Of a stretch of 64,000 nt of DNA, positions 1 to 54,281 are shown in pieces; positions within the stretch are counted from its first letter, which is position 1; each line of letters starts with the position of its first letter. The notes under the pieces are model-generated. The model saw only the letters and a program-made list of their open reading frames with translations, was not told where the DNA came from and did not search any database. Location of the stretch: NCBI GenBank assembly GCA_008632985.1, contig QPGO01000017.1:682001-746000 (forward strand), in the 5' to 3' direction. Both the position numbers and the translations under genes were made by a program. This DNA is from Psammoneis japonica. Lineage: Eukaryota.

Positions 1-1050
1 GATGTCAGAAATTTTCATCTTAAAAGACAATGAGCCTTGAGGAGTTGAGCTTCTCCGTGCAACCAAGACACTTGAGATGAGAAATGAGCACAAGCCCCTG
101 AGAAGTCTCTTGCATGTGTCTCACTGATGACTGCCTTGCAAGCCACAAGCTCTGGCTCAATTGTCTGAGCACAATGCAACAATGCTTCAACCTTCTGACC
201 ATGTTCCAAACATTTCAAGTCAGGACACTTGTCAAGGGCAGCAAATGTTGCAAGCCTTTCAGCAAGTCTCTTGAATGGATGCACCATTTTCTTCTTGCAA
301 TGAGCTGTTTTGACAATGCTTTTGGCCAAAGCAGTGTGCTTGCTTGACTCTCCTTGGCCGTTGCAATGACTGGCTCAAGACCAAAAAGTGAGATGACCAT
401 TCTCTTTGGCATCAAACTCTAAAATCCAAGCCCAGCCAGGGGCATTGACAAGGTGCCCTTTGATCACATGATGCACTTGACAATTGTCTCCTTGAAGGCA
501 GACCCTGTGAGTGGCAGCTGATGCCTGCAATGCTCTTCTTTGTTCACAAAATCATTGGGTGCAACGTGAGCATGACAAATGCATCATAAAGGTGCCTTCA
601 AAGCACCCAACTTTTGTGACAACAAGTTTAAGACCAAATCCTTGTGTGGGTCACAATCTTCAGGCTCAAACTTTTCCAAGTCACTGTGCAAAATGGTTGA
701 ACTCTCCCTCTCCTTTTCAACAAGCTTCAGCTCACCAGCAGTTGCCAAAGCATTTGCAGTCACCTTGGCAGTTGTCAACCGTTGACCATGATGCTGCCTG
801 TCATGAATCCACCACACAAGCACCTGAGTGTGTTTGATTTTAACAGCTCCAAGGTTTGCCCAACCTTCCACATTGGTTGAACAAGTGCTGCAAAGTGCAA
901 AGTGCTTCTCTTCTTTTAAACTTTCCTTCAGGTGTGGTTTTGTCATGGCAACCCAATTTGGGATCATGGATGTTGAGTGGCTTGCATGCTTGTTCACCAA
1001 TTCCAACAGAGCATTGTGATCCCCAGCCAGATGCTCTTGGCATTCATCAT
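1..1050 (-). mobile_element. Degenerate Ty1/copia (CoDi-like) gag fragment
   Basis: Stitched minus-strand frames give ...SHCNGQGESSKHTALAKSIVKTAHCK...HGQKVEALL...KAVISETHARDFSGACAHFSSQV, resembling diatom copia gag (HYxGxGE...QKV..LL...DF..A..Y.S..V) with Tyr->Cys/His. Multiple stops and frameshifts. Confidence 0.45.
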
Positions 1051-1084
1051 AAATGGCAGTGAGTTCAGCCTCAGCCTGTCACCT

Positions 1085-4000
1085 CAGTGAGGACTTCCTT
1101 GACTCCGCATCATGGCCATGCATTGCCACATTGTGTTCCTCCCACAACTCCCACCAGGATTTCCAAATGTGAGTGCCAATCTGCCCTGACCACACTGGCA
1201 GGGCATTGGCTTCACATTGGCATTGGTCTGGAAGGCCAGATTGATTGTTTGAGATGTGTCTCTTGACAAGCATTCGAAGGTTTGAAAAATCTCCCATTGA
1301 AAATTTGGCGCCATCCAACAGAGTTCTGATCTCACCACAGAGGTCAAAGCATGGGCACAATGTCCATGTCACATGACATCACATTCTGAAACCAGGCCTC
1401 AAGTGCTTGCAAAAGGAAATCTTGCAAGGGAGGCATTGCATCAATCTCATCACAGCATTTGCAGAGACCGTGCAGAAATTTGCAATGCCAGGGCTTGTCA
1501 TCTGGACACCGGAGAATGTGGTCTTGATCCTCCATTGGGTGTTCACATGCCAGACAGTGGTCAGGCCACATGAAATTGCACCAGCAGCCAGCAATTTCAT
1601 TTGCAGGAAGAAGGCAATGAATGAGCTTGATGGTGGTGTTGCTTTGAGAAGCAACAGACAAGAGTGGCATGGACCGCCCAGTCAATCTCATCTGTGACAG
1701 ACTCATCCCAGTCATTGTGCTCCCAGATGTAATCCAGCATGGCAGGGGGGGGGCTGTGGCTGTGCAATGAATTACAGGCTTGCATCCAGCTGTGACTGTG
1801 CCACCCAACAGGTTCAAGCATGTCTGACAATGTGGAAGTGGGGTGACGGTCTTTGTGTCAAAGGTTCATTGTCCCTGAAATTGACCAGCCAATTTGGCAT
1901 TGAGCAGAAGAGAAGAAGCAGGCGTGACTTTGTCTTGATGTCCTTTAACCCACTTGGCAATTGGAGCCTTTGCTGGAGTTGACAAGTCCAGGAGAGTGTC
2001 AACATCCCCACAAGACTGACAAATCCCAGTCCAAAGACAAGAAGTTTGTGCCATGAGAACGCAGACCAAAATTGGTCTTGGAAGACAAAGAGAGCAGATC
2101 AATGGCTGGGCAGGAACTTGTTAATTTTTGAAGAACCTTGACCAGGGCCTTGTTGTCACACCAATTGTCATTTCTGTGGCAGTGACATGCTTTGCAAAAT
2201 TTGAGCAATTGACACACAAATCTCAGCAGAGACAATGCTCTGCAGGCTTCTGCATGGTGCAACAAAGGTGCCTGTCCAAAGACTGGCCCAGCCCAATCCA
2301 CAAGGGGACAGTCATTGTCTGCAATGGTCCATCCAAATGCAGTGCTTTGTTGAAGTGCTGAACCATCACTCCCTGCTGCAGTTTTTGCTGCAACCAGGAA
2401 ATTGACACGTGCACTCACTGGTGCATGGAACCCAAGATGTAAAAACAGCAAAGATTCCCATCTTGGCAAGGACTCAAGGCAGTCACAAAAGAAATCTGGG
2501 AGTGGTGTTGGTTGTTCCAGACTCAATTTCAAATGGTGTTGGGCAAACTTCTAACAACCATCCATTGCAGTGCTGAGCTCAACTGAGTGCAAGTCATCAG
2601 ACGGGTGTGGAACTGTCTCAATCTCAGACAAGGACACAGCTTTTGACTGTTCCAGCAAGAACACATCCAAACCTGTTGAAGAGATCAGACACAAAGATGT
2701 GATTCAGCAGGAGAAAAACATGCAGCTGATTGCATGCACATTTCTGATGGAGGGAGCAATTGCCCCCCCAAAGGGTTTCAGAGAAGAGCAGAATCAGGAT
2801 GACAAAGCATGGAGCACAGTTGAATCCATGGATGCCAGGCTTTGTGACAGGGCTTTTCTTGTTTGATGTTGTTGAGGGTGCTGACACCACTGGGGCAGGC
2901 TGGGTTCCCACACATCTGGGACTTGTCCAGCTCTAATCTGTTTGCCAAAGTGATGTCAGACATGGTGAAGACCTTGGGGCAGAGGCAACAACAGTTGATC
3001 CACTTGATTTTCAAGGCCAAAAATTCAGCCAATGCGAAGGCCACATCCACCAAGCATTGGTTGTTGTCACATTGTTGAGGCAATGCTCCATTGCTTGCCA
3101 CCTTGACCCTCCAATGCAGTGCAAGAAGGAACACACTGATGCAAACCACAGCAACTCATTGTGTGGGTGTGGAGTGCTCATGTTGGAAAGAAAACTGACC
3201 CCAGCACCAAGATTCAGCTGCTGCCATGCAATGGCCAAGTGGACGGCCTCAAATGGTTGATCATCCTTGAGCAATGGTTGAGCCCCCCTGGAGTGTTCAA
3301 GCAGCTGTTGAATTTGGGCCAAACCTTGCTCAATGTCTGGGACTAAAACTCCTCTCCATCCAAAGATTGCGGACCATGCAATGCAATTCTCTTGGTGGTT
3401 TGGTCATGACCGCACTTGGCAAAGACAACTTGCATGGTGCATTGCTGTGTCTTTAAGAGAGCCTTCACAGCAAAGTGAGAATTGGCCAAGACAAAAGTGG
3501 TCATTGGCAAATGACAAGCGTGGCAGCAATGCCATGATTCAGAGCATGTCAAAGGGATGGACCATGTGAACAGGGCTTTGTCATCACTCTTGTTTTTCAC
3601 CTCTTGGAGCTCTTTCTTCAGGGTGCCAGCTGCAGCTGCATGGTGGCACAGCATTTTGTGGGAAGCAAACAAAGACAATTGGGGGCTGCATTGGGAAGTG
3701 GAACAATCTGTAAAAAAATTCAATGTGGACGTCTTGATTGTGCAGGTGGAGACTCGGTTTCCCACATTCCAAAAATTCCCATTCTGTTGCATGAAATGAA
3801 CACTTGGGGAGTTCAACTCATGACCACTGGAGTGGAGCAGATCACACCAGAGCTGGTCATCACAATGAAGTTTGAGGGCCAGTTCTTCAACTGAATGTTG
3901 GGGAGAGGCACAAAAGTCATCAACCTGTTCAGACATGTCATCCAGGCATCCGCAAGTAAAGATGTTCAGCTGACAAGATCCATTTGGACTTTCAAAGAAT

Positions 4001-4765
4001 GCACCATGAGCTTTGGAATCAAAGACATCAAACAGAAGGCTGCGCAAATTGTTCCAGATGAAGAGAGAATTGCTGTTGCCCTGGCCTGTGCTGCAAAGAG
4101 GGTGTTTGGGAGAATGAGAGTGCAAGGTCTCAGACAAACCCAAGAGAGTCAACAACCAATGCCCAGCCAAATGAACAGTCATTGTGGCTGCTGCTGCCAC
4201 CTGTGGGTCCACTCTCAAGCTGACCAATGGAATTTTCACTAAGATGAGGAGTTTTTGGTCACAACATGAAGTGCAGTCATTGTCACTTGCAAGCAACATC
4301 TTTTGTGATGCTCAAGAGATTTCCAGCATCAAAATCTCTGGGAACACTGGGGTCTGTGCACACAGAAATGCTCTGGTGCCACATGTTCCGGGGCCAAAAA
4401 CCAGTGGGTCTCCATGTGTTATGTGAGGGCCTTCCATTTCATGCTTGTGGTCAGTTGAAAGCCCGCCTTGTAAATGTGCATCACACACAAGTGATGGATG
4501 CAGTTGTTCCCTGGCTCTTTGAAAATCACAATGTTTGCAACATCTTGCCAACGGTCACATGAGTGACCCCACTTAAGAGCACAATTCAAGAGGTTTAAAT
4601 GGATGGTTTGAAAAGTCTTTTGAATCTGGCCCAGGTGCAATCTCTCTTCAGCAGGATTTCTGAAAGGGTTGGTCAATGAGGAGCAAAGATGATCAGCACA
4701 CATTGCCTTCCAGTGACCAAGATGAAGACCAGACTTGATGGAAGTGGAGGTGGGAGGCAGTCTTC
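1085..4765 (-). mobile_element. Degenerate non-LTR retrotransposon (Ambal-like; RT + RNase H + C-terminal Cys/His region)
   Basis: SGLHLGHWKA (~4720); NCIHHLCVMHIYKAGFQL (cf. LRVIHIYEADYNL); CCDQ (cf. CYDR); STGQGNSNSLFIW; RNase H GSDGS..FGW, WCDNKAL, KWVKGHQD (~1950); CLACEHPMEDQDHILRC (~1530). Heavily frameshifted. Confidence 0.7.
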
Positions 4766-5170
4766 AGCAGGAGCGAAAAGTGGCACTGCTTGCATTTGCA
4801 CGTCAGATGGGTGGATCAATCAATCCCCAGAGAGGCTGTCAACTTGGCAGAGTTGGGATGGTGCAGCAATTTGCACAAACAGATCCCAGAAGTCCCACTT
4901 CAAGCCTGAGCACATGCAGAAAAATGGTGAACACCCACATTGGTGGGAACTGGAGGAGCTTGACTTGGCTCTGAGGAAGGCAGCAGGGCAACAACAGACT
5001 CTTGAGAAATTTCCAAAATGTGGAGGGAACTCCAGCTGTGGATGCCAGCTGATGGGATCAAATTGTTTGCTGCACCAGACATGCCATCTGAGACACCAGG
5101 AATCATTGAGCAGGGGTGGCCCATGTGCAGACGCATCATCTTCTGGAAGATCACTGACTGTGCCTGGGAG
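4766..5170. repeat. ~405 bp dispersed direct repeat, copy 1 (copy 2 at 8082-8486)
   Basis: Near-collinear match agcaggagc...tgcctgggag. Differences are mostly transitions, including reciprocal TG/CA. Confidence 0.9.
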
Positions 5171-5399
5171 ATTCTTTTGCTTTCCTTCCACCTGTTTAAG
5201 TCCATGAGCACTCCTGCAATCCTCAATTCTCCACTCACCTTCCTTTTCATTGCCCATGTTAAACTTAGAATCTTCACATCTTCCAGGACATCTTGTGCAC
5301 CACAAATGCTCCACTCCAGCTGCTTTGCCCCAGCACAGAGCACCAGCTGGCTTCATGGCTTCATTGCATCTCATGACTTTTGATTTTGATGTGTTCTTC

Positions 5400-6130
5400 T
5401 GAATCTTCCACCTGGCCCAGCTCCAACCAATGGTGGATCATGCAGCTCTGGTGCAGCAGAAGCATGTCTTGTCCATGCAAAGCTTGTCATCACAGCACGC
5501 CAGAAGAGCAGCAGCCAAACCCACTGGCAAAACCAGGTCTTGCACTCAATGGTGCACTGAAGCTGGCTGCATGCATGCCATGCAATGGACTGAAGAATTG
5601 AGCAGTGCTCTGGCAAAAGATGGATGAGAAGGTCTTGCCACAGTTGGACAAAATCATGAAGCAGATGGAAGCAGATGTTAAAGCAGATGCCAAAGCAGCA
5701 TCAAGAGAGACTTTAGAAGAGGCAAATGAACTTTGTGCCAAGTCTCAAAAACGTGAAAGCTCACATTTGAAATGCCAAGAATGACTGTGCCTCTGATGCT
5801 GAGCAAGCTCTTGTTGAAGCCTCCTGCCAGTGCACAAAAAAAAAAGCCCAGGTGTGAAGGTGCTGGAGCCTGGAGAAGATGAGCAAGAGTCATGGTAAAA
5901 GAAGGCAAGCTTTTGTCCAAACAAGACATTGTCAACCACAGTGAGGCATGTGTCAAGCCTGGGTGTGACTGCTTCATTGACAAAATCACTGACCCAAGTG
6001 GACCATGCCCCAGTGCTGTGAATCCCTTCTGGACAGCTGAGTTGTTCAACCCACTCACAAAAATGAATCATGAGTCTGTCTGTGAAACAGAGGATCTTGT
6101 GGATCAGTGTGTGCTGCTCAAGTTTCAAAT
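5400..6130 (+). mobile_element. Possible degenerate hAT-like transposase fragment
   Basis: HSEACVKPGCDCF...FWTAELFNP resembles a YAKACVxPGxDYF...FKAARLFxP segment I recall from hAT-like transposases. Weak match. Confidence 0.25.
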
Positions 6131-6329
6131 GAAGAGCCACTGCTCCTTTGCCAGCTGTGCTTGTGGCAGCCACCCCACACATTTTCCAGCGCACTCAACA
6201 AGCATGGCAGAAGGGGACAAGGACCAGCCAGGATGGGTGTTGCCTTCCAGTGATGTGCCCCACCAAAGTGGCTGTCAATGGAGAGGGGGCCACAAAGTGC
6301 AGTGTGCTTTGCTTTCTTGACTTTGGCTT

Positions 6330-8010
6330 TCAATTGTGGTTTGCCATGGCTGCCTGATTCTGATTTCTGGATTTGCCATGTGTCATGTGCTCAGCCAGGG
6401 AATCCATGAGATTTTTTCTGTCTTTCACAAGGTGTTCTTGGCATTTGATGCATGTGGTGGTGCGCTCAGCCTCAGCTTGTTGGTTTTGAGAGGACAGGAT
6501 TTGCAAGTGCCCACATCATGTCTGTGGGCTACCTTGTCATGCTTCACATGTGCAATCCAACCCAAGCCACCCAAACAGGGGGGACCATTCTCTTTGTGAT
6601 GTTGGCCCAGAAGACTCAACTCACAAAGATGCAGCAGCTCCTGAAAGGCACTCCACAAAGTTGAGTGGTGCCCCCTGAAAAATTGCTGCAAACTGATGCC
6701 AGGCTGAGCTCTCCACAGCAGACAAAGCATGGGGCACACTTTGAACTCATGAGCCATCTCGTCATGAAGCCAAGCCTCAAGAGATGACAAACAGAGTTCC
6801 CACCAATCTTGTCACAATGCTTGCAAAGGCCTTGAAGAAAGGCCCATCACCTGGCTTTGTTGTTTGGACATTTAAGTGTGTGGTCCCTGTCCTCCATTGG
6901 GTGCCCACATGCAAGGCAACAGTGTGGTCTCACTGCATTGCATTGGTTGGTGATCTTGCTTGTTGCAGGGAGCAATCCATGAGTTGGGTCCTTGGCTGTT
7001 GACACACGCTTCTCAGAAAAGCTTTGGACAAGTTGGTGTGCACATTCCAGTCAATCTTGTCAGCAACAGATTTGTCCCAATTGTTTCTTTCACCGACACA
7101 CTCTGTGAAGGCAGGGGCTGCAGCTGCATGACAGACTGATGCCTTTGATCTGGCAGCCACCATGCAATCTGAAAGGCTGAGGCATGCTTGGCAATGGGGA
7201 GTGGGTGTCACTTGAGTCACATTTCTGGTGTGTTCATCTTGGTGTTGACCAGCCAATTTGTCTGCTCACATGTCAACCTGAGCATTTGATGATGCCAGAG
7301 CATGTCAATCCTGGTGACCCTTGACCCACAGAGTGGTTGGTGCCTGGCCTGGAAAGGAAGTGCACACCAACAAAGCAACTGTTGGCGGAGGTCTTGCAGG
7401 CTTTGTTGATGACAAAACATGGGTGCCATGATGTCGGCAGTTAAAATCTTTCTCTGGATGAGCTTGAGAAGAGGGTTGATGGCTGGTCTTGAGATGGACA
7501 GGCAATTGAGGACACTTGCCAGTGTGTGGTTGTCACACCAGTTGTCCATGGCTTTGCAGCAAGCAACCCAACAGAACTCAAGGACCCAACACACAAATCG
7601 CACAAGGGAGAGCACTCCACAAGCTTCTGTGTGGTGTGTAAAGACAGGGACCACCCAAAACCCAGCTGTGCACAAACAACCAAGGGGACACCATCAATCA
7701 TTGAAGTCCACCACCCAAAGGCTGCACTCTGAAGACATGCAGATCCATCGCCCCCCAGATGTGGTGTGCTGTTTGGACACCAGGCAACCAACCTGGTCAC
7801 AGAGGGGGATGCATGAAACTCTGGGTCCAAGAAGAGATTAGATTCCACAGAGAGAGAGCCTGCAGGTGCTCTAAAAAAATGAGGAAGAGGTGAGAGGGTT
7901 TCCAGTTCAATTTTTGATTGGTGGGGGGCAAGCTGCTGTGAGCCATCATCAAAGGAAGCAAAAATCTCAACATGGAAGGACTCTTCAGACAGGACCAGAA
8001 TGTTCTCCAT
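6330..8010 (-). mobile_element. Second Ambal-like LINE fragment (RNase H and C-terminus)
   Basis: GGDGSACLQSAAFGW, TEACGVLSLVRF, WCDNHTL, WVKGHQD (~7310) and a C..CGHPMEDRDH motif; paralogous to 1100-2550. Confidence 0.7.
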
Positions 8011-8081
8011 TTAGTGCAGTGTCAATGCCTTCTCATTTTGGACTGAAATGATGTCAAAACTTGCCGGAGACCAAACACATT

Positions 8082-8486
8082 AGCAGGAGCAAAAAGTGGC
8101 ACTGCTTGCATTTGTGCATCAGATGGGGGGATCAATCAATCTCCTGGAGGGGCTGTCAACTTGGCAGAGTTGGGATGGCACAGCAATTTGGACAAACAGA
8201 TCCAGAAGCCCCACTTCAAGCCTGAGCAAATGCAGAAAAATGGCGAACACCCACATTGGTGGGAACTGGAGGAGCCTGACTTGGCTCTGAGGAAGGCAGC
8301 AGGGCAACAACAGACTCTTGAGAAATTTCCAAAATGTCAAGGGAACTCCAGCTGTGGGTGCCAGCTGATGGGATCAAATTGTTTGCTGTGCCAGACATGC
8401 CATCTGAGACACCAGGAATCATTGAGCAGGGGTGGCCCATGTGCAGATGCATCATCTTCTGGAAGTTCATTGACCATGCCTGGGAG
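8082..8486. repeat. ~405 bp dispersed direct repeat, copy 2
   Basis: Aligns with 4766-5170. Confidence 0.9.
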
Positions 8487-9714: not shown

Positions 9715-10188
9715 AGTCAAAGCTCCCGTGTGCGCTGAGCTCCGAGTGCCTTCCCAACCTGTCAACTGGATGTCCACTCCAGACTGACACCTCAGGCAAA
9801 ACACAAGCAGAAGGTGTCTGCCAAGGAGCAGCAACAAACATTCAGTCAAATTGTCTTCACAAAACCACTGGTGACCAAGTTGTGAGCCACCTAGACTGAA
9901 TCTGGTGAGTGCACCAAATTTGGGTTTATCCGCACATTTGCACTGGAGACTGGCACAAGCTTCAGGGTCAACCACTTCCACAACAATCATCCAAGTGCTG
10001 CTGAGCCAATCTGTGGTTGGTCCAACATCTGTGCAATGCCTGTGATTCCCAAAGCAGCATCCATGATCCTCAAAGCATGCAGCTTCAGAGTTGAGTCCAT
10101 GTGGTGTGAAAAGAACTTCAACAAGAATTCTGACCGACGGCAGTGCAGACACAATGGAGAATTTGGGTTGGTGGACAGATGACCCACA
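9715..10188 (-). repeat. 3' LTR of the 9.7-17.4 kb copia
   Basis: Follows the PPT and aligns with ~16987-17388 over ~390 bp. The left boundary is approximate. Confidence 0.7.
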
Positions 10189-41509: not shown

Positions 41510-42119
41510 TTTTCTGTGGCAAACCCAGGTTTGTTCCATGGCATTTCCTGATTTTCCACTCACATCATGGGCTCTGTTTTTGAGGGAGACATGTTGATGA
41601 GTCACAGCAAGAGACATTTTACAGCAGCATGGACCCTCATTTGCAATCCAGCTGTTCAGACATGATCACACAGCAAAAACAGCGACATTGTGCAACAACT
41701 GGTTTGGGAATTTCTCCCACACAGTGGTGGCTGCTTGCCAACTTTCCTCTGCCCTCTGTCCACAGGTCTGCACCTTGTTCCTCTGCTGTTGTGCTCTTTT
41801 CCTGACCCCAACCCTGATTCCTTTTTGCCTCTGCTTGCCCTTTTTCAACCAACACACCAGCAAAAAGGTGTTCTTGACTGACAACTTCACAGAACTCCTC
41901 CCTTGTCCACTTTTTGTCTTGGTTTTCATGGTCTTTCCATGCCTTTGCCATGGCAGCCAAGCCCCACTTGCATCTCTTTAATCTAAAATTTCAGTTTGGC
42001 ATTGGCTGGCTCTTGCTTTGCCCACTGCCTGCTGCGGTGGTTGGCACACCAGCTGTCAGTCATTGCCCTGTCCTTGGCGACTTGAGTTCCAGACTTAGGT
42101 GGCGCGCACATGCCCCTTT

Positions 42120-42920: not shown

Positions 42921-45900
42921 CCGCAAGTGTGGACCGCGCGTTTCATGCAAAAAGGGTCATTTTTTCGCGCGTGAGTGCACCTGAGTCTGGAACAAGTCTG
43001 GCACTTGTCTTGTCCTCAATGCACTCTGTCTTGTTCTTCTTTTTGGTTTGGCCAACTCTCAAGAAAGACAGTGCAAGGAGGGGTCAGCACACTTCACCTG
43101 ACAGGGGCCTGTGAAGATGAAGAAAAGTTTGCAGCACCTCAAGAGAATCTGCTGTCTTTCGTGGCAGGCAGCGGCACACTGACGACAGAGTTGCAAGAGT
43201 TTTCCAGTTGCAAGAGGTTTCGGTGTTCTGTGCCGCTGGCAAAACTTGCCAGCTGCTCCCCCTCCTCACTGACACAATCTGAGGATGAGCCCTTGTGAGT
43301 GTGGCTTGCAGAGTTGGTGTGCAACAGCTGTGGTTGCTGTGCTGCTGGTGGGCATGTGTTTCTCGCTTGTTGCTCTGTCACTGTCAGAGTCAAACCATGC
43401 AAGGACAGGAGGCCCAATGAAAAATGATGAAGAGCAACACATGATGGTGTGCACTGCTTTTCTTGTGCAGTGGCAGAACAGAAAGAGCTGCTGTTCTGCA
43501 CAACCCTGCAGCTGAATGCCCAGAGCTGGCTTTCTGGCATGACTCCACCCAGCTGATTGCACCGCCTTTTGGAAGCTTCTTCACTCACACAGTGGTGCAT
43601 GGAAATCTGTCCCTCTGCATTCTGACTTTGCTGCAAAATGCACACAGCCGGCTTCCATGCCCCAGAGCAAGACAACGTCATTTCTTGCCAACAGAGGGCA
43701 GACAGGATCCTCTTGCAGTTCTTGCCCACCAATGGCTGTGCAACAAATTGTCTTGGGATGGACAAACACACACACTGTTTGTTTTCAACTTCTTGTGTCA
43801 TTCTTGTCTCACTCCTCTTGCTTTCAGTGTTTTTTTTTGCCCTTTCTCTGTCATGTCTGGCTCACACTGGTCTTGCTGTTTAAATGAGTGCTGGTGCACA
43901 GTGCTGCACACTGGTGCACATGGCTCCAACCTGAGTGTGGCTTGCAACTGCGCCTCCTGGCAGCTTGTCCTCCAGCAGATGGGCATGCTGCAAGCTCACA
44001 GCCCCCACTCTTTTCCACACCCCCGTCTCTCCAACTGCACCATCTTTTGCCCCACAAAGTGCAGACCAGCCACTTCTGATGATGAGGGCCTCCAAAATGA
44101 AATTCAAGATGAGGAAGATGTGAAGTCCTTTTGTTGGGATGCAAGGATGATGATCAACACAGTGCAAGGGCATGCACTCTCCTTGGCTCAAGTTGCCTCA
44201 CCTCTCCTGCACTGCCACTTGCCAAGCCTGCTTCAGCACCAGTGGTTTCTGTGCCTCAGCTTCTGAGCCTGAGAGAAGATGGTGCAGATGAAGACAAAGA
44301 AAAAGGAGTCGGCACCTCCCCAGAGGATCATGCAGCCAGCAGGACAGAAGCAGAAGAACAACAAGCTTGGTTTCCTCTGCACATGCCAGACACTCCTTTA
44401 ACTCCAAGGGCTGGTTGCTTGATGGAGCCATGTCCCCCCTCCTGTGGGGTGCACTGTGCAAAAGCCGCAGACACACAGCAGATGACAAGAAAGCACAACC
44501 TTTTTTGTCTCTGGCAGCTCTGTGCTGACAGAGTCAGAGCAGCAAAAAGCACTTGTTCTGGTCAACTCATGACTGGTCCAGTGCTGCTGCTCACCCCAAT
44601 GCACTCTGCATCATTTGCTGGTGCTGGCAGAAAAGAGTGTTCACAAAGAAACATTTCAAGACCAGCTCTTCCCCATTGCCACTCTCCAAAAGGTCCCTGT
44701 GTGCCTTGAACATTTTGGAGGTTTTCCCGTGATCTCTCAACCTGGTGGGGAGCATCTGTGCTGTCATTTTGGGTGCAGCTCCCAAGATGCAGTGCGCCTC
44801 CTGACAAACTGTGAAAGCGCACATTGCTTTGAGGTGATGTGTGCACATGACCCTGCCCAGATGGGCTCACATGGCTGGTGTCTGGCTGCCATCTGCTCAT
44901 GGTCTTGAATTGCGGGATGGCCAGCTGCACTCCAACCAGCTGGCCCAGGTCTGTTCAGGCAGAACAGCAAAAGCAGGACACTGTCATTGGCTTTGGTTTT
45001 CATGACAACATGACCTGCTGGGTGACAATCAACAGTCACCAACTCACCCTCAAGCATGTGCAGCTGGGACCCCATCATCTTTCACACAAAAGGCCAGCAA
45101 CTGCCATGAGTTCTGGTTCATTCTTGGCTGCACTGCAAGTCTCCATGTCTCCTCTGCAGAAGAAGAGAATCTCAGTTTGGAAGGAGCTGGAGCCCCAACA
45201 GGTGTTCAGAGGCTTGCAGTCATTGCTGTTGTGAGAAGTTTTTAGCTGCCATTCTCAGCATGTGCTTTGTTGATGTGATGCACCAGCAGGGCTTCAAGGG
45301 CTTTGTTGGTCTTTGTTGTCAGCCTGCTGTGAAGAGCACAAGGCCTCCACTCCTCTGTGCTTGATTGTTGCTTCTCTTGCAGGCACAAAAGATGTGCTGG
45401 GTGGACCAGGTGTTGGGTGGCCCAACCAGGCATGGCTCACTGTCCCTCATCGTGCGAGTCATGTGCTGCACATTGTGCGCGCATGATGTGGCCAACACAA
45501 GAGACAGCAGAGCCACAAGTGCATGGAGGCAGAGCAGGAGCAAGCACAACAGAATGCTTCACCCACAGACTTCTTGGTGTGCAAGTTTGAAGAGGGCACG
45601 TTGCATGAAGATTTGCAATCCAGGAGAGGTTCTTTGTGTGTGGCTGGGCACATTTGGTGGGTGCTCAGATGTTGACCTCCATCTGCCAATTCTTTTGAAG
45701 AAGAGCTTGCAGACAGAACTCAGAAGAGCTGTTCTCCAGCTGCATGAGAAGAAAACAGCCAACTTGAGACAAAGCAACAGCCGAGGCTGTGCAGAAAAAC
45801 ACGAGCATCAGCCAGCCTGGTGGTGTGCCATCTTCTGGTCTAAAGAGAGGAACAACATTCTGCTCAACTGAGTTGCACTGAAGAAAGATGATTTTTTGGA

Positions 45901-46569
45901 TGAGCATTTTGGCAACTGCCTCATCAAAACAGGTGGGTGGCACCAAGAGAGAGAGGAATGCGCGCGTTGGGTGGTGGTGGAGAGCACTGTGTGATGATCC
46001 CACAAAAAAAAAAGCTCATGCAGCTGGGAGCTTTGCTGCTTTTGTGAGAGGAATCTTTCACTTTAATCAGCTGCTGACTTGGGACAAAGGAGCAAAACAG
46101 TTCATCCAGCTGGCAGCACAGTTGCAGTCCCCTCCCTTTTTTCTCAGCCTCTCTGGCTCCCAAGAAGGGTGCGTCCCAGCTCCTGCGCCACCACAGAGAG
46201 GAGGGCGCACCACAAGCTGCGCAGAGAGAGATCAAACTGTTTGACAGCATGTGCACTTATTACAATCCATTGTCATGACTCTCTGAATCAAATGGCAGGT
46301 GCAATTATCTCGTGTTGTTTCGCTTTGCTTAACCGCCAACATGCACTTGCTGGGGCCCTGGGCCCACGCCTCTGCAATCCAACAAGTTGTTTGTCTGTCT
46401 TCTTGTCAGGCCGTCTGTGGCAGTGTCCGCATTGCTTCCGCGCCTGGTGCCTGGTATCATACGCCCATGCATCATACTGTACGTGAAATCGCAATGTGGA
46501 AATGGGCGATGGCGTTATTGCGCTTCAGCTTCAAACTTGCTGTTCTCTCGATTCCTCTTTTGCAGCGAA

Positions 46570-47916
46570 ATGACGGAGGAAAGCCTAAGGTATTATGAGG
46601 AAAGAACATCGAGTGCTCGTGAAATTGCCCTTTTACGAATACAATCGTTTGAGAAAACACCGTCGTCGTGTGGAATCGCGTCTGAGTTTGTGCCGCTTTT
46701 TCAATCTGCGACAGAGGAGTGGTTCATAGCAATCAAAGATGGAAGCATCAGTCGTGATGCTTTGGTATTCAAAGATGAATTAGCAGAACTAACGGTAAAT
46801 TGGATTGAAAAGATACCAAACGTTGAAACAAGAGTCCTCCTGAGTGTTCTTCGGATACATGCGACGATCTCAAGAATAGACCCAACTCTGGCAGAAGAGC
46901 TTGGGCGAGAGGGCTCTCATGCGATCGTGAAGAGAATTATTCGATGTCCTCCATTGGAAGGTCTTACTGTTAGTGACGATGAAGACAGTATTTTGATGGT
47001 TATTCAAGACGTCGCTTGCGACATCGTCTCCTCTGCGGGTGGATCCTTTCCTCTCAAGTACTCACCCTTCACCAGACACGAGATAGGCATGCGTCTTCCG
47101 CTTGTCTTTGAAATTTCATCCATTTCGAGTAAGAACTACTCTCCAGAGCCTGTATCAAGAGTGCTGATTCATCAAGTAACTACGAGACAGTCTGAGCAAA
47201 AAGACGTTGGTTTCGGTACGTGTAACTGTGAAACTACTTTCTGTGACTTGTTGTATAAGCTGTAGTTTTCAGCGCTTACCGATGTACATTTTTCTTGGTT
47301 GCTGTAAGTCATGTGGCCCTCTGCAGTTGTATTGTCTCGATACATAGCGAGGAATCCATCCTTGGTTGAACAGAAGGTGGTGCTTGAGCTTGGAGCTGGA
47401 TGCGGCCTCGTAGGTCTCCTAGCTGCTGACTTTAGCGCCAAGTCAGTCCTCGTGACAGACTTCAATCAGACTGTTATAGACAATCTAAAACGCAACATTC
47501 TGTTGAATAATGCACAAAATACAGTGGAAGCTGCCGAATTGGATTTCTGCATACAAACTGGAACCAATGTGGATGGGTGGTTGGACAAGCACGGTAATGT
47601 CCAGGAGCAAGTCGATGTGATTTTGGCTGCTGATGTAATTTGTCAGCCACAGGATGCTGTGGCAGTTGCAAATACTATACACGATGCCCTCAAACCTGGA
47701 GGTATTGCTATAGCTGTCAGTGGAACTGCGAAACACCGATATGGTGTCGAACGATTGGAACCTGAAATTGAACGTGCTGGTCTAAAGATTTCCATGACAT
47801 GCAATGTAGCAGATCTTTACAATGGCGAGCTTTTGGATGATGGCATGGAGAAAACTGCAGGATACGTGAAGGGGATGGCAATGAGCATTTTTTGTGTAGA
47901 AAAGCCCCGTTCGTGA
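46570..47916 (+). CDS. Family-16 (METTL21/EFM-like) protein-lysine SAM methyltransferase; intron 47216-47308
   Basis: Spliced DVGFVMWPSAVVLSRY; VLELGAGCGLVG, VLVTDF, RNILLN, DVILAADVIC; GT..AG intron; normal TpA content. Confidence 0.88.
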
Positions 47917-49659
47917 TCTCATCCCGTATTTTTAGCGCAGCTGATGCCGACCACGAGCACGAGTGAACGGTGGGCGCCGACGCGGGTTCCATACTTGCAT
48001 TGCAACATGAATGGCAATGACGTCAGAATTCCAGTTTTATAGAAAAATGGATAGTAGTTGTCTGAATCCAGAGGAGATCTTCGCGGTGATCCGAACTGCT
48101 GCAGCGATGCGCTTGCTAACAAGCAATCACGGTGTGCTTCAAACTGAACTGGACTAGCTTCAATCAAGAGAAACACTGCAATGCCACAATTGTCTGGGTC
48201 AGTGATGATGAGCCAAGTTCCAGCATCAATTGATGTGTTCTATTAGAAACAATGAGGGTGTTTGCAGGAATGCTGAGAAAAGAAACCGCTCTGGTGGTTG
48301 GCTCACCAGCAGCTGTGACATTGCTTCAAATAGAAAATATCTAGTTGACTAGATTAGAAACAATGCAACAAATCAGATCTAGCTTGCATTCTGTCCAATG
48401 TTGGTTGACCAAAATGCTCCACAGCCAATCACCCAACCTTCCACAATGCCAAAGGACCCTTCTTGTTCTGTTGTCTTTCAAGGGAGGTGCCAATCCCACC
48501 CCACAAGATCTAAATGTAACATCAAGATTGCACCTCCATCCACCTGCAACTGATTTGCAGTGATGCAGGTCTCTCCTGCTTTGGGGCTGTTTCAAAATGT
48601 CTCCTTCCTCAGCCGCGACACAAGCCACCCCAATGGCAACAAGTGTGGGGTGTGCTTGCATGACAGTTGGAAATTGGTGCAGCAGGCTGTTGACCAAAGA
48701 AAGATTTTCCACAATGTAGAGCTTCTGACAAGTTGACATCCTTCCCAAAATGTCTCCAATGGTGGAAGACACAGGGCACTCAGCTGAACATCTTTCCAAG
48801 CAAACATGACTCTTCTGACTCTTGCATTTTTGCTTGACAACTGACAACCATCAACGCATCCTCAGCAAGATCTGAGGATGGGTCAGGTCAGGGCATTTCA
48901 AGGACATGTGAAATCTGAAAGTTTTGCCGAAGCTTTCTCATGTTGGTCTCCAGTGTGCTTGCATTCAGACCAGCAAGATTGTGCTCTGCTCCAGTGCACT
49001 AGAATGAGAGCTCCCCCTGTGACCTCACTTTGCAGGCATGCTGTGCAAAACAGATTGTTGGCCAGGTTTTGAGCAAATGCTTGTTTGTCAATCTGAGCTC
49101 CAGTCAGCCCACAAGCAGGAGGCTTGGGCACAGATGACCCCTTGCTTCAGAGCAGCTCAAGCACTTTCAACAACGTCAAACAGCAGAAACCAGGATCAAG
49201 AGCTTGGGCCGCATGGAAGAAGCTGTGTGCTTTCCTCTGTCATCCAGCATCACAAACATTGAAAGAACCTCTTGGCAATTGGCCAGTGCCACCATCCAAG
49301 AGTGGAGCCATCCATGACAGAAGACAGCAGATGGACATTTGACTTGCCACGTGCTTCTTTGTCAGATCCACCGCATTCTTGGCTTCTGGATTCATTCTGA
49401 GAAATGCTGCAATCTCTGCCTCAATGGGAGGCAACGTTGTCCGAAGAACTTGAATTTCATGTTCCCCCAACATGCGCTGATCTGTCATTTCTCTTCCTCA
49501 ACATTGACCGCAGGGAGCAACAGTTCCGTTGATGAAGGTGCCACCTTCGGGTGGATGACTGCACTTGCATGAACCCCGTTGGTCGATTGCGCCGGGCCAG
49601 TTTTTGGAAGACGGCCATCGTCACACTGAGCAGAAGCATGTGGGATTCTCTTGATCTTT

Positions 49660-51050
49660 TCTGATTCATTTGCTGCTTTTTGGAACACTGCTGCATGGAA
49701 CAGTTTCCGGATTTTGCCTTTGTCCTTCCAGCTCCATCTCCTGGGGACCAGTCTGATGATGTCAGAGATTTTCTTGTGTGGCACCATGGAGCCAACACCC
49801 TTGCTTCTGACTGGGACGTTCTTGATGAGACACTGCACTCCCACATTGCCATGGAAGAATCCTCCAACTTCAGCACCCCCCCATCCCATCTACAAGCAAA
49901 GTGGGTCAAAGGACACCAAGATGGACATGCCCCAGTCCACACACTCCCTCTCAATGCAAGAGTGAATGTACGAGCTGACTGGCCGGCTGGCGCTCACCAA
50001 GGTCATTGCAATCAGGATGTCTCAATGGTCTTGCCCTTTCCTCATTGCCACTCTTGTTTGAGTCTGCAGAATGGTGTGTTGACATCAAGTTTCAAACGGC
50101 AAGTTTGGTGTGCTGCCACTGCTTTGCAGCTCCTGGAGTGCATTCTTGAGTGCAACGAGTGGCATCCGGAAGTGATTGATCTGACAGATTGGGGTGCTCA
50201 CATCATGCTGATCAAACGGCATTCCAAGCAGCACATTGGAACATCAAAGCTGGTTCACGATCTCCTCCCCATCAACAAGATTGTCAACAGATGCAATTCC
50301 ATCCACCCTCACAGTTGTCTTCTCTGTGAGCATCCAATGGAAGACAGGGATCACACACTGCAATGTTGGCACAACAAACCCTGGCACAGAAAGTTCCTGC
50401 AAGGTGTTCACAGCACTGTTGTGATCGGATCGACACGATGCCTGCACTTTGCGTTTTTTTTGTTGGACTCAATTCAAGCACAGTTCAATGGTGAGATGAG
50501 GTGCCCAGAGGATTTAGACCACCACTGCAGAGCCCTGTGGTGCAATCAATGAGATGTGGGATGGCAACAAGTGTTCAGTGGATGGCACTCCACTCTTTGG
50601 AATGTGATCCAGTCTGGACATTTGTGTGATTCAGGCATTCTTCGTCAGTGCCAAGAGGAGAACAAACAGCCACCAAGTTGGACAGTGCAAATGGGGTTGT
50701 TCATGCGGAAACAATGGCAGAGTCTGTGGGAAGAGCACAACCATCGTGCACATGGACACAACAAAGATTTGAGGAAGTTGTCTCAGAGACAAAAGGTCAA
50801 GGCTGAATTGACAGCTGCACACAACAAATGCCAAGAATGCCTGGCTAAAGATTGAGGTGTCCTGCTTGACTCAGTGGAAGATCAAAATTTTACAACAATT
50901 CACGTGCAAAATTGGATCTCTCAATGGTCTGACCTGGACTTAAAGAAAGTCTCAAAGAAGCCAAAAGCTGGTGCTTCACGGCACTTGCACCATCACCAGT
51001 TGCTTCCGTTGGGCATCTCCTCAAGGAGACACCGACGATTCACAGGCCAA
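49660..51050 (+). mobile_element. Third Ambal-like LINE fragment (RNase H end and C-terminus)
   Basis: DWDVLDE, KWVKGHQD, NVRADWPAG, CLLCEHPMEDRDHTLQC, GWQQVFSG, LWEEHNHRAHG. Confidence 0.72.
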
Positions 51051-51231
51051 TTGCATCAACTTCTGCTGCACCCCCAGTGGGGTGCACCGGAGGTGTGGGT
51101 CAGCTGGCTCCAGTGTTGCTGGGCAAAGGTGTGACAGCACTTTAAATTGGTTTTTTTTTGGCAGTGATTTACAAGGTTAGAAAAGTTTCAGATGATCAAC
51201 AGCACAAGAAGGATTTTTGTTTTTCACAAGA

Positions 51232-51880
51232 ATGTTTGTGTTGACAATGGTCGCTGACATGGCAAGGATTCCTCCATCACTGCTGGCACAGCCCACTTTG
51301 AATTCAGTTCATGGCAAGATGAACAAAAAGCACCCCAACCACGTGATTGTGGATGCAGGTTTGGTGATTTGTTGGCATGGGGATGCCTTGGAAATTGGAG
51401 AGTGTGTCTGTGTGGCTGGGGATGGAGAGGGGCACATCATGAGGTCATTGTTGGACTGGTGGTGTTTCAGCCTTTTGTTGAGGAGGTCACACAAGATGGC
51501 ATCTGTGTCAGTTTGGTGGGGTTCTTTGACAATGTCTTCATCCCAGCTTGTTGGATGCTTCGTCCCAGTCTCAATGTGAAAAGGAATCAGGCCCATGGGT
51601 GTGGACTCCTCAGCACGACAATGATGAAGAAGATGTCAGAGAAACGGCTGAAGAAAATTGATTTGAAATAGATGTTGGTGCACAGATGTGGTTCAAAGTC
51701 AAGTCCATCAATTTTCTTGCTCAAGTGACAAACACCACCAAGGGCACACAAGCCACCACAACGACAACAGCCCAGTCATCTTTGTTCACATCTGTGGACA
51801 GAAAGTCTCTCACCAGTGGAGATGAAAATGGGCAAAGGGATTCTTCAGAGAGCTTTCCAGACCATCCTGCTCAAAATTGA
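51232..51880 (+). pseudogene. RPC8: RNA polymerase III subunit RPC8/RPC25 pseudogene
   Basis: MFVLTMVADMARIPP...NKKHPNHVIVDAGLVIC...AGDG / HHEV..VVFQPFVEEV..DGICVSLVGFFDNVFIP / WFKVKSINF matches RPC8 (MFVL...VRIPP...NKKLANKV..GLCI..PGDG..H...VVF.PF..E...GV.VSLGFFDDI.IP). Frameshifts and a small deletion. Confidence 0.8.
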
Positions 51881-52807
51881 AGCTCTTCTTTAGATCTTTG
51901 ATTCAAAGACACCAGCGAGCATGCACACCATTGGCTCCATCTGTGAGGACAGACTTGGATTGATGACGTGGTGGAGTGCTTCTCAAGGAGACAAAGATGA
52001 AGAAGACAATGCAGATGAAGCTGTGGAGGAGGCCAATCATCAGGTGCTCATTTTTGGAAAGATTGCAGTTTGAACTTCTCTCTGTCACTCGCCCAGTCAT
52101 TGCCAGGGTCAATCTGAAGTCCTGCGCTCTGCTGCTGGCACCTGACACCTGCTCAGTTGGATGATGGCCACAGTTGTCAAGCTGCTCACACTTTCTTGTT
52201 AGAGATGAACATGACATTTGTGTGGCAGGTTTTTTCCCAACTGGTGTCCATCACAAGTCCGCGCACTGTCAACTTTGTCATTGCTGTTTCAGGATGACCT
52301 GTTTCCAAAGCTGTGTCAGTTGAGAGCAAGCTGTCAATGACAGGCCAACTGCATGAGAAGATTCAAAAATGCAGGGTCTTCAGCATCAGAGTGGGATGGG
52401 ACAGAACCGCATTGTCTCTGCAGCATTGCTGGTCCTGGCATGTGGAGCGGCGCAGCGGCGCCATCAGGTTGCTTGCAGCTGAATCAACAAAGCCTTCCAA
52501 CAGGCCTGTGTGTTCTGTGTTTTGCTTTGCACTTGCACTCTGACTTTTAGTGGATCCCTCTCATGCACCGCATGCCTGGATGGATGCAACAACATCGCAC
52601 CTGCTCCAATGAAATGCAGTGCCAATGACTGTTGCACTGGCTGTGAGCTGAAGGAATGGTGGTTGTGCAACACGTGGAAAGCAATTGTGACTGCACATAA
52701 AATCTTTGTTCCGGGTTTGTTGAGTGCGTCACTCCGCACCACCGCACGTCGCTCGATGGCACAATGTCTTCATCAACAGACAAAGGCAAGAAAGCGAAGG
52801 CAAAGGG

Positions 52808-52945
52808 GCCCCACACCACCCCTTCCTGTCACCTCCAACAGCCCCACCTCCAAAATTTCTCCACCCCATCATCAACACAGCCCCACACCACCCCTTCCTG
52901 ACACCTCCAATGGCCCCGCCTCCCAAATTTCTCCATCCCGTCTCC
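52808..52945. repeat. Two-copy ~72-bp C-rich tandem repeat
   Basis: gccccacaccaccccttcctg.cacctccaa..gcccc.cctcc.aaatttctcca at 52808 and 52880. Confidence 0.75.
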
Positions 52946-54281
52946 GCCTCAACCATGCCAACGCCATCAGCAATTGCACCGGTTGCTGACTTTGTCGCTC
53001 TGCTGGATTAAAAGCCAGCAGTTCTCCCAAAACACACTCTTTGACCAGGCACCTGCCAGCTCTCTCTGCTGTTTGTTGCTTCGGAATGGACGAGTTGTTC
53101 CTCGACCCGGATTCATTTGATGACCCTTCTGATTGCTCCTTCGAATGCAACCCTTCTGATGACTCCTGTGAGTTCAACCCTTCTGACATCGATCCTCAAT
53201 CCAATGATCATAACTGGACCACCACCTGGGTGATGTCCTTCTTTCTTTCTTCGGTTTGTCCCATGAACGACAATGCTGCCGCATGCTCCAACACTCCAAC
53301 AACCTTTGACTCCCAAAGTTGGTGTCAACAAGACCTCCCAAATCTCATCTCTCATCCTCCCCTGCGTCGGTCTTACTCCGACTTGGACTTGCCAGACTCA
53401 ACTTGGTGTGACACCATTCTCCCACTGATCACCTTCCGCCCAAGTCCTCCACCTGCTCCCCATCTTCCTCCGTTTGCTGTCCTTCCTTTGCCACCCTGTT
53501 TTGCCCATTTTCTCTTCGATCCTTCGGCTCCTCCCCACTCAATCCCCAAGCTTCCATCCTTTCGTTGCCCTCCTCGAGTCTGTCGTTTCCTCCACCCACT
53601 TGGCATTGCCTCCAATCCATCCTTTTATCCTTTCCTTGCGCTTGCCTGCACCGTGGACCCCCACATTTTCACACCATCACCAGACCTTGCCCTCCTCCTT
53701 CGCGAGTGCTTCTGCGATGCAACAGCCTGTGGCGAACCTCCCCCCTCCTTCGTCTGCCGAGTTCCCACATCCCTTCTTCACTTTGACAACTTTCTTCTCT
53801 ACATCGACAACTGCCTTGACGACTCTTTAGCTGCTGAGTGTCCGCACTCTCGGCCAACCCTTTTTTCAATGGGAATCATTCGAAAATGTCGCATGGGTCA
53901 CAGTTGACATTTCACACAAGGAAAAACACAAAATTGTGCAGAAATGTGCACAATGTCATGCGAGAGAGTGATTAGAGCTAATAACTTTTCGGGAACTGAA
54001 TTGAAATGCTATCTGGTTGACGGCATTGGCCTTCACCATGTGAATCAAAATGCCGTCAATCAGATGGCATTTCAATTGATTTCCCGAGAAGTTGACATTC
54101 GTATACGGACGGATGGACAGACTGATAATTATTATTTTTAGTACTCTCCTACACAATTTCTACGTGATGACTCTCAGGACCCGAATGATTCCTATTGCTC
54201 CATCTCCGAGCGCACTCCGCGCGACTCTCCCACCACCTACTGTATTTCTCCAGACCAATCCCCTCCAACATCATTATAAAA

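Follow-up and report, generated by a model that had tools for sequence, protein, structure and literature searches.

Probable targeted TpA-to-TpG/CpA hypermutation of transposon-derived DNA in the diatom Psammoneis japonica

INTRODUCTION

The closest described system to the one examined here is that of the chlorarachniophyte Bigelowiella natans, in which integrated viral DNA undergoes A:T→G:C hypermutation at TpA only, as reported in the available passages of a preprint (bioRxiv 10.64898/2026.01.13.699255, 14 Apr 2026). In its mutation-accumulation lines, according to the same passages, two integrated viral regions changed at ∼6e-7 per site per generation, ∼1000 times the rate found elsewhere in the genome; A→G or T→C changes made up 230 of the 231 mutations, with all of the GC-biased ones on TpA, and the process was seen in just 11 of the 15 lines. 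These passages further describe 324 TpA-poor coding sequences enriched for reverse transcriptase (RT) and DDE domains, cite amphioxus BjADAT2 and Trypanosoma ADAT2/3 as DNA-active, and show the authors proposing, but not demonstrating, an ADAT2-like adenine deaminase (bioRxiv 10.64898/2026.01.13.699255). Here, we analyzed a stretch of 64,000 nucleotides of the diatom Psammoneis japonica (contig QPGO01000017.1, positions 682,001 to 746,000 of the forward strand; hereafter, the window), in which DNA derived from transposable elements (TEs) is nearly devoid of TA dinucleotides and the host genes are normal in this respect. All counts and readings refer to this 64-kb window.

As far as the available passages of the preprint describe it, the B. 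natans case resembles ours in that the change is almost exclusively A→G/T→C at TpA only, giving TpG or CpA by strand; in that it stays within foreign or mobile DNA, while the host DNA next to it mutates normally; and in the TpA-poor, CpA- and TpG-rich clusters, in which RT and DDE domains are there overrepresented. In the window, too, A→G/T→C changes occur nearly alone, are restricted to TpA, fall on both strands, and are confined to mobile DNA. The differences lie in what was seen and where. According to the same passages, the B. natans process was measured in real time, and its targets are two single-copy insertions, of nucleocytoplasmic large DNA virus (NCLDV) and virophage origin, that are still TA rich (Rho 0.45; 3.3% TpA). 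The window instead carries a near-saturated historical footprint (TA observed/expected [o/e] ratio, 0.03 to 0.17) on copia, Helitron, and unclassified TEs in another lineage of the stramenopile-alveolate-Rhizaria (SAR) group. It also displays a flanking-base hierarchy and an uncoupled decay of CpG; the available passages of the preprint lack the words "trinucleotide," "context," and "diatom." Full-text literature searches found no report of TA-depleted TEs in diatoms. The available passages of PMC2806351 contain no "dinucleotide," "hypermut," or "deamina," and those of bioRxiv 10.1101/2025.10.24.684338 contain no "dinucleotide," "hypermut," "RIP," or "deamina." An earlier note on this DNA, made from the letters alone, had held that no nuclear process like this was described, a statement that the TpA-only hypermutation of B. 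natans, as given in the available passages, overturns (bioRxiv 10.64898/2026.01.13.699255). The diatom, although not the first case of its kind, extends the signature to a second lineage, where it lies on TEs, is close to saturation, and brings additional constraints on context and strand.

Other known systems match in part. Fungal repeat-induced point mutation (RIP) shares with the window dinucleotide-specific transitions that occur at the DNA level and on both strands, inactivate elements in place, and leave a compositional scar, but its polarity is opposite, as RIP makes TpA from CpA/TpG and here TpA is destroyed. Repeat pairing, premeiotic timing, and a C5-methyltransferase-like enzyme are features of RIP. 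In the window, a repeated terminal inverted repeat (TIR) element is spared. As an explanation, RIP was rejected: it predicts an excess of TpA, and the window has TpA nearly gone and CpA/TpG in excess. Deamination of 5-methylcytosine (5mC) at CpG likewise feeds TG and CA and occurs in the older blocks of the window (CG o/e 0.20), but it is a C→T change, is ∼tenfold slower than TA loss here, and is spatially uncoupled from it. The reasoning of the earlier note that C→T processes such as CpG deamination and RIP cannot explain the signature stands, as they have the wrong polarity and the signature turns Tyr into Cys or His. ADAR and APOBEC3/AID also produce deaminase-driven clustered transitions against mobile or viral nucleic acids; ADAR, however, acts on RNA, on one strand, and in a looser context, APOBEC/AID make C→U, and a strand-symmetric change at TA alone that extends to a Helitron matches neither of them. 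TadA/ADAT2-type deaminases with DNA activity would give A→I→G, and the step on which they act natively, U33-A34, is UA. Engineered adenine base editors are TadA-type DNA deaminases, and TadA prefers a TAC context, which the TA-Y preference described below resembles. To our knowledge, there is no natural chromatin-targeted adenine deaminase that acts on double-stranded DNA.

RESULTS

TA loss is confined to TE-derived DNA

Ordinary host genes occupy the last 10 kb of the window and an island at 46.5 to 48.3 kb (CLU/TIF31, WDR55-like, CYTH, and Methyltransf_16, as assigned with Pfam); the rest is transposon derived, with two copia elements, one Helitron plus a repeated block that reaches to 31.5 kb, and several unclassifiable relics (Table 1). 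The window is diatom nuclear DNA. The closest relatives of its CLU protein share at most 66% identity, and all of the named ones are diatom proteins (Nitzschia, Cylindrotheca, Pseudo-nitzschia, Eucampia, and Proboscia).

Window-wide, the o/e ratio was 0.20 for TA and ∼1.53 for TG/CA. Old TE blocks (28,985 bp) held 107 TA compared to 1,831 expected (o/e 0.058; CG o/e 0.20), and younger TE blocks (21,103 bp) held 187 compared to 1,127 expected (o/e 0.166; CG o/e 0.86), against 384 compared to 685 expected (o/e 0.56; CG o/e 0.99) in host genes and intergenic DNA (10,703 bp). By Fisher's test, the P values against genic DNA were 3e-125 for the old and 3e-61 for the younger blocks. TG and CA were raised to 1.4 to 2.0 in TE blocks, where AA, AT, and TT were undepleted; AA/TT in the old blocks stood at 1.0 to 1.3, as in genes. 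The longest TA-free runs extended up to 1,041 bp, and the edges of TA depletion were sharp (≤100 bp) at ∼42,100, 42,900, 56,950, and 57,900, coinciding with element ends. Six single-copy noncoding segments retained TA (o/e 0.39 to 0.78), so TA loss is not a property of noncoding DNA. Across the first 16.5 kb, the six frames contained 75 TAA, 31 TAG, and 858 TGA stop codons; because TAA and TAG are nearly gone in all six frames, the TE blocks contain many long spurious open reading frames (ORFs). These counts confirm a TE-confined loss of TA beside normal genes, as the earlier note had described it, and TA in single-copy noncoding DNA also proved to be normal.

Loss of conserved tyrosines gives the direction of change

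We polarized the change in copia 2 with 120 copia homologues obtained via tblastn, using 600 codon columns with at least 30 aligned homologues and at least 70% agreement. The Tyr content of the copia-2 ORFs was 0.0%, 1.1%, and 0.0%, compared to a median of 4.1% in the 120 homologues. At the 29 conserved-Tyr columns, copia 2 carried Cys 12 times, His 9 times, Tyr 4 times, Phe 3 times, and Trp once, and 21 of the 25 changed columns thus correspond to TAY→TGY or CAY. Other conserved residues were retained at 76 to 100%, with Thr lowest (22/29) and Arg at 40/46; four Arg→Cys and two Arg→Gln changes in the Arg columns were ascribed to CpG decay. The Helitron, polarized with 23 homologues over 239 columns, kept none of its six conserved Tyr (four read Cys, one His, and one Arg, encoded by CGC) and also showed V→A (four), I→T/M (three), and L→P (two) changes, as expected from GTA, ATA, and CTA codons, respectively.

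The composition of copia 2 was also compared with that of relatives in metagenomes. Per 1,000 dinucleotides, TA stood at 5.2 in copia 2 and at 60 to 68 in two such relatives (L001 and L003; TA o/e 0.77 and 0.91), over which copia 2 gained ∼21 to 23 TG and ∼22 to 25 CA, so that the TA loss of 55 to 62 is largely balanced by a TG+CA gain of 43 to 48. The metagenome scan for copia-2 copies yielded three loci at 59 to 63% identity, too distant for nucleotide-level spectra.

Most of the peptides in which the earlier note had recognized Tyr replaced by Cys or His were recovered: DIGNAHLEA, ETATCGSEF, LRCLGVP, SCMFGDN, and HWGHSQ are present in the copia-2 translation, and KSLHGL, CLCIND, QHTIEHILK, and WVHVVLSR are in ORFs of the window. 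KALHGL was not located as a string, the other nine listed peptides all being found. The excess of TA→TG/CA over an outgroup consensus that the note had predicted was likewise found, with 21 of 29 conserved Tyr of copia 2 and 5 of 6 of the Helitron now reading Cys or His.

Both DNA strands are hit, copy by copy

Three pairs of long terminal repeat (LTR)-like sequences gave 1,007 aligned columns with 92 mismatches. Among these were 25 adjacent double mismatches, 19 of them TG opposite CA, where random placement of the mismatches predicts ∼8.9 adjacent pairs of all kinds; TG↔CA swaps are what would be left if one copy underwent TA→TG and the other, independently, TA→CA. Over 223 columns, the copia-2 LTRs differed by six TG↔CA swaps, one TA↔TG/CA change, five CG↔TG/CA changes, and one other transition, and had 2 TA and 11 CG in common. 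Between the LTR-like ends of copia 1 there were eight TG↔CA swaps, nine CG↔TG/CA changes, and three TA↔TG/CA changes, and the differences within the direct repeat pair of the first block (Table 1) included five adjacent TG↔CA swaps and four CG↔TG/CA changes. From the copia-2 LTRs we infer that ∼83% of TA sites, ∼16% of CpGs, and ∼0.3% of other sites would have changed per copy, by which estimate TA loss would outpace CpG loss ∼10-fold and background change by a factor of a few hundred.

The coding strand of copia 2 showed no bias, either in its Tyr replacements (Cys 12 versus His 9) or in its TG/CA ratio (0.86 versus 0.83 to 0.84 in unmutated relatives), and the rolling-circle DNA transposon (Helitron) was affected like the retroelements. 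The process works at the level of DNA, affects both strands, and strikes each copy independently. Strand symmetry, the swaps between LTRs, and the affected Helitron argue against RNA editing and against editing of one-strand cDNA.

A flanking-base rule and a separate decay of CpG

The extent of TA loss depended on the neighboring bases. In old and younger blocks, respectively, the o/e ratio was 0.01 and 0.04 for ATA, 0.04 and 0.16 for GTA, 0.05 and 0.20 for CTA, and 0.13 and 0.26 for TTA, compared to 0.50 to 0.71 for the same four trinucleotides in genic DNA, giving an order of loss by 5′ base of ATA > GTA > CTA > TTA. ATAT remained at 0 of 622 and 0 of 316 TA+TG+CA sites, and TTAA survived best, at 5 to 9%. 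The main products were RCA from RTA and TTG from TTA. In single-strand terms, T in R-T-A becomes C or, equivalently, A in T-A-Y becomes G; the hierarchy T-A-T > T-A-C > T-A-G > T-A-A might be the fingerprint of an enzyme.

The earlier note had stressed CpG too little: many blocks are CpG depleted as well, and the two depletions are uncoupled. Old blocks lost both dinucleotides, whereas the Helitron block and copia 2 lost TA only (CG o/e 0.86). Both copia 1 LTRs are without TA, and the LTR at 17.0 kb retains CpGs that are gone from the one at 9.7 kb, which suggests that CpG decay along copia 1 is regional rather than age dependent. Along this element, CpG o/e climbs from ∼0.1 at 10 kb to ∼0.9 at 17.5 kb. 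CpG methylation decay is thus present as a second, separate process, with a CG o/e of 0.20 in old blocks and 18 CG↔TG/CA differences between LTR-like copies. CpG decay alone was rejected as an explanation, as it is a C→T change that can neither turn Tyr into Cys or His nor cause TA loss.

TE origin rather than present-day repetition may mark the targets

We used summed contig depth, which is not a copy number, as a guide to repetition, with 45 to 95 over single-copy parts of the window. Families of high depth were hit, among them copia 2 (60,942 to 133,848, which fits a very abundant family) and the block at 24321 to 31500 (2,041 to 4,035); blocks at single-copy depth were also hit, and the repeated 908-bp TIR element (2,259 to 4,571) was spared. 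As single-copy relics are depleted and a repeated element is not, the process would appear to mark TE-derived DNA and not whatever is repeated today. The earlier description of it as repeat restricted and RIP-like was not supported, given that TA depletion is strongest in blocks at single-copy depth, that the repeated TIR element is spared, and that, in the available passages of the preprint, B. natans has a single-copy target. The escape of the TIR element may reflect a recent arrival, too small a size, or a lack of recognition. The sole mismatch between its arms is a TA/CA difference.

A short TA-free block lies between host genes at 57.0 to 57.9 kb. It had no match in a Pfam scan; possible identities are a solo LTR and an old insertion. 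An ORF on the minus strand (57679 to 58557) extends into it.

Read-derived contigs and environmental sequences carry the signature

Contigs from run X1 matched the TA-free single-copy parts with 3 to 17 other letters per 304 to 1,162 bases; contigs 1 to 3 covered 32000 to 34450 with 3 to 6 other letters, and contigs 5 to 7 covered 43000 to 46350. Read-derived contigs thus carry the TA-free sequence, and the consensus artifact that the earlier note had asked about was not seen in them. Variant places among copies comprised 776 transitions versus 148 transversions. Among the 40 variant rows listed, out of 937, several are TG↔CA pairs at neighboring positions or show TA at places that read CA/TG in the window. 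Opposite conversions stand 6 bp apart in one sequence (CAT at 40095 and TGC at 40101) and within 10 bp of each other in the LTRs.

In metagenomes, a third locus related to copia 2 (L002, on a 1348-bp contig) had a TA o/e of 0.06. A Helitron protein, P0244, contained no Tyr (0%), and its conserved-Tyr columns read Cys six times, His four times, Phe once, and Tyr never, with 213 of 236 other conserved columns kept; in a second one, P0245, these columns read His six times, Cys twice, and Tyr three times. As independent environmental sequences carry the signature, the process is not confined to this assembly.

Modifier-like ORFs and other features of the window

The repeated block downstream of the Helitron contains an ORF (28082 to 29596) related in predicted fold to the 2-oxoglutarate (2OG)/Fe(II) dioxygenases of the TET/JBP type. 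Its best score in the ESM Atlas was 0.96, with 24 of 30 matches in clusters of which 18 to 19% of members are Tet_JBP, and it had 675 homologues at an E value of ≤1e-3. In the HxD...H motif of the family, H404 is invariant in 50 sequences and D406 and H460 are nearly so; the window copy reads NAHRDQD and TKHCC. An AlphaFold2 (AF2) model reached a pLDDT of 90.1 and a pTM of 0.88, and in a Foldseek search of the PDB, ranks 1 to 25 were all CcTet, CMD1, NgTET1, and TET2 (E values of 4e-9 to 2e-6; TMq, 0.44 to 0.53). The modeled fold is closest to those of the TET/JBP nucleic-acid dioxygenases, and catalysis is putative. In Pfam, including PF12851 (Tet_JBP), 0 of 50 family members matched at an E value of ≤0.001 and the window ORF had no match even at ≤10; a profile of the family found no PDB sequence. 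Conserved Tyr is mutated in the window copy, in which YFCFP reads HFCFP and LYLK reads LCLK.

A neighboring ORF (26846 to 27865) is a lead for a DOT1-like methyltransferase, and some of the DOT1 clusters that it matched in the Atlas are from giant viruses. Pfam and PDB sequence searches gave no match for ORFs 25804 to 26757, 26846 to 27865, 28082 to 29596, 29819 to 30448, and 30466 to 31356. The minus-strand ORF 29819 to 30448 looks SET-like by eye, which the tools did not support; its one weak Pfam hit was to fn3_6 (E value of 0.024). The TET/JBP-like and DOT1-like copies are both TA-mutated. These two ORFs may serve an element counter-defense or may be unrelated passengers.

The features of the window are collected in Table 1. 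A 305-N scaffold gap (18874 to 19178) splits the Helitron helicase ORF, and a tandem array with units of 129/248 bp (24460 to 25033) lies where the Helitron ORFs end. A 74-bp tandem duplication with 100% identity (31148 to 31295) lies within TA-poor DNA. An Rfam search of the window found no RNA family match.

Table 1. Features of the 64-kb window, in window coordinates
Feature	Position	Strand	Evidence or values
Old TE-derived block, TA and CpG stripped, with most of copia 1 inside	1..16500	.	500-bp windows: TA o/e 0.00-0.12, CG 0.03-0.45, TG/CA ∼1.4-2.3
Direct repeat pair, 93% identical	4766-5175 / 8082-8491	.	No TA common to both
Copia 1, LTR-like ends 9730-10104 and 17002-17381, 87% identical	9730..17381	-	LTR alignment
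RVT_2 domain within old block (copia 1)	10832-11557	-	Pfam
Helitron Rep/helicase ORFs	18603..24320	-	Helitron_like_N, DUF6570, PIF1; TA o/e 0.06-0.39, CG 0.6-1.0
Repeated block, TA poor and CpG normal, with chromatin-/base-modifier-like ORFs	24321..31500	.	TA o/e 0.04-0.33, CG 0.5-1.27
DOT1-like methyltransferase ORF (lead only)	26846..27865	-	ESM Atlas features: 17/30 matches in DOT1 clusters, best 0.95
TET/JBP-like 2OG/Fe(II) dioxygenase ORF, itself TA-mutated	28082..29596	+	ESM Atlas, AF2, Foldseek
Old TE relic, TA and CpG depleted, single-copy depth	32000..34450	.	TA o/e 0.03-0.09, CG 0.11-0.41, depth 68-333
Copia 2 LTR retrotransposon	34496..41509	+	LTRs 34496-34718 and 41287-41509; pol ORFs 36696-41286
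Old TE relic, copia 2 to TIR element	41520..42085	.	Per 100 bp: TA 0-2, CG 0-2
Miniature inverted-repeat TE (MITE)-like element, 16-nt TIRs, not TA depleted	42086..42993	.	Arms 42086-42101 and 42978-42993, 94% complementary
Old TE relic, TA and CpG depleted, single-copy depth	43000..46350	.	TA o/e 0.00-0.04, CG 0.09-0.20, depth 45-70
Host gene Methyltransf_16, TA normal	46500..48300	+	Pfam E 5e-19; TA o/e 0.36-0.73
Old TE-derived block, TA depleted, CpG partly so	48400..53900	.	TA o/e 0.00-0.20, CG 0.14-0.75
WDR55-like (+) and CYTH (-) host genes plus intergenic DNA, TA normal	54100..56950	.	TA o/e 0.49-0.67; intergenic 0.49-0.72
Short TA-free block flanked by host genes	57000..57900	.	2 TA in ∼990 bp (56913 to 57901)
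Host CLU/TIF31 gene and flank, TA normal	57950..64000	-	CLU_N and CLU domains; TA o/e 0.38-0.81

DISCUSSION

We consider it probable that chromosomal TE DNA in this diatom has been subject to targeted TpA→TpG/CpA (A:T→G:C) hypermutation that spared the genes, with adenine deamination as the likely chemistry. In the mechanism that we propose, TpA steps in TE-derived DNA would be converted to TpG or CpA on chromosomal DNA, on both strands equally, and each integrated copy would be struck independently, whereas adjacent host genes, the DNA between genes, and a single short TIR element would be spared. Efficiency would be set by the flanking base, ATAT being the most and TTAA the least sensitive. 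The lesion would most likely be hypoxanthine, formed by an enzyme that deaminates adenine, and would be read as G; deamination is the simplest chemistry because it gives A→G only. The candidate enzyme would be a polynucleotide deaminase of the TadA/ADAT2 type, which natively edits A34 after U33, a UA step, and it would probably be recruited to silenced or foreign chromatin and not by repeat pairing. Elements would be killed by Tyr→Cys/His, Ile→Thr/Met, and Val→Ala replacements, and their TAA and TAG stops would be erased too. The context-specific A→G (= T→C) mutator at TpA that the earlier note had proposed, acting on both strands of TE-derived DNA, is borne out by the Tyr columns and the TG/CA symmetry.

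Several points weigh against this reading or narrow its breadth, beginning with its foundation on a single 64-kb window. The most depleted relics (32 to 34 kb and 43 to 46 kb) are single copy by depth at a likeness of at least 80%, and the 908-bp TIR element at 42086 to 42993 keeps its TA (o/e 0.82; CG o/e 1.28) inside TA-free relics. The TA-free block at 57.0 to 57.9 kb carries no TE annotation. Copia 1 was reached by seven tblastn segments with 0 qualifying columns, and the direction of change is that read from copia 2 and the Helitron. All of the reads derive from a single sample, which was probably also the source of the assembly, and the detail on variants comes from 40 of 937 rows. In principle, the LTR differences could arise on double-stranded cDNA before integration. 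TpA is self-complementary, so the sequence cannot separate T→C from A→G. The deaminase is a candidate enzyme, and the 3′ preference found here (T > C > G > A) mismatches the anticodons edited by eukaryotic ADAT2/3.

The palindromic nature of TpA, which makes T→C and A→G indistinguishable, also leaves room for a thymine lesion, in which a TET/JBP-type dioxygenase would oxidize T in R-T-A to 5-hydroxymethyluracil (5hmU) or 5-formyluracil (5fU) that mispairs with G to give T→C. The context rule reads naturally as 5′-purine-T-A, and a multicopy TET/JBP-like ORF (28082 to 29596) with an intact HxD...H motif lies inside a TA-depleted repeat; JBP and dinoflagellate hmU favor T in TpA, and 5-formyluracil is mutagenic. 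However, 5hmU pairs well with A, and oxidized T should give transversions, whereas 21 of the 25 changed Tyr columns of copia 2 are transitions (Phe 3, Trp 1). The TET-like gene is, moreover, TE borne and itself mutated, the substrate of its product is putative, and it more plausibly acts on 5mC or N6-methyladenine (6mA) for the element's benefit. We regard a thymine lesion as rather unlikely; adenine deamination, which we favor, and thymine oxidation are the two chemistries put forward in the earlier note, and both are still live candidates. A polymerase-eta-like, error-prone patch repair of silenced DNA that places G opposite T at WA motifs would act on both DNA strands, and immunoglobulin hypermutation, in its second phase, is a known source of transitions that target A:T and favor T/A on the 5′ side. 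Yet the WA rule predicts a loss of AA, and AA/TT in old TE blocks is as in genes (o/e 1.0 to 1.3); the specificity for TA is essentially absolute, and a saturation of ∼95% is hard to reach via occasional patches, which makes this explanation very unlikely. The 5′ U preference of ADAR on A→G changes is similar to what we observed, and most of the affected DNA is retroelement derived, as hyperediting of TE transcripts followed by reverse transcription and reintegration would have it. Against this stand the Helitron, which has no RNA intermediate and is equally affected, the equal effect on both strands, the undepleted AA, and the independent and opposite conversions held by noncoding relics and by the paired LTRs of one element. 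The 3′ neighbor preference of ADAR is opposite to the order T > C > G > A found here, and we consider this route extremely unlikely.

A modified base at TpA in TE DNA could be misread, or the consensus be in error; modified bases can give systematic miscalls on some platforms, and the reads share a probable source with the assembly. A strand-specific misreading, however, predicts reads that are all TG or all CA, and opposite conversions stand 6 to 10 bp apart; a column-wise consensus would yield CG and TA too, and not just TG and CA. Contigs at a depth of 45 to 95 carry the TA-free sequence with 3 to 17 other letters per piece, TA-rich DNA a few bases off reads normally, and the signature is present in independent metagenome assemblies, so that we give an artifact almost no credence. 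Slow ordinary decay, or TEs that are intrinsically TA poor, might be suggested by the mild underrepresentation of TA everywhere (genic o/e 0.56). It is hardly credible given unmutated relatives with TA o/e of 0.77 to 0.91 and normal Tyr, intergenic DNA and a nested TIR element that keep TA, and copia-2 LTRs in which nearly all inferred TA sites changed versus one other transition.

Targeted TpA hypermutation, if it is the cause, has consequences for enzymology and for genome analysis. The flanking-base hierarchy and the strand symmetry are testable constraints on the enzyme, which, if it acts on duplex DNA, would be a natural context-specific A-to-G editor. Clocks based on LTR identity will overestimate the ages of such elements, the loss of TAA and TAG makes long spurious ORFs in all frames that are a trap for gene callers, and mutated elements match more weakly in homology searches; Tyr-free proteins such as P0244 already sit in public protein collections. 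That TEs carry TET/JBP-like and DOT1-like genes is a hint of a host-TE conflict waged via base and chromatin modification. We tentatively entertain a broader possibility, that diatoms carry an active TA-specific DNA adenine deaminase or thymine oxidase guided by chromatin or small RNAs and working on double-stranded genomic DNA, a defense that would sterilize transposons and integrated viruses, would be shared with chlorarachniophytes, and might be an old, SAR-wide counterpart of RIP with opposite polarity. That TE classes unrelated to one another bear the saturated footprint in a diatom, and that independent marine metagenome sequences show it too, suggests that the process is widespread among major phytoplankton and not a one-strain curiosity.

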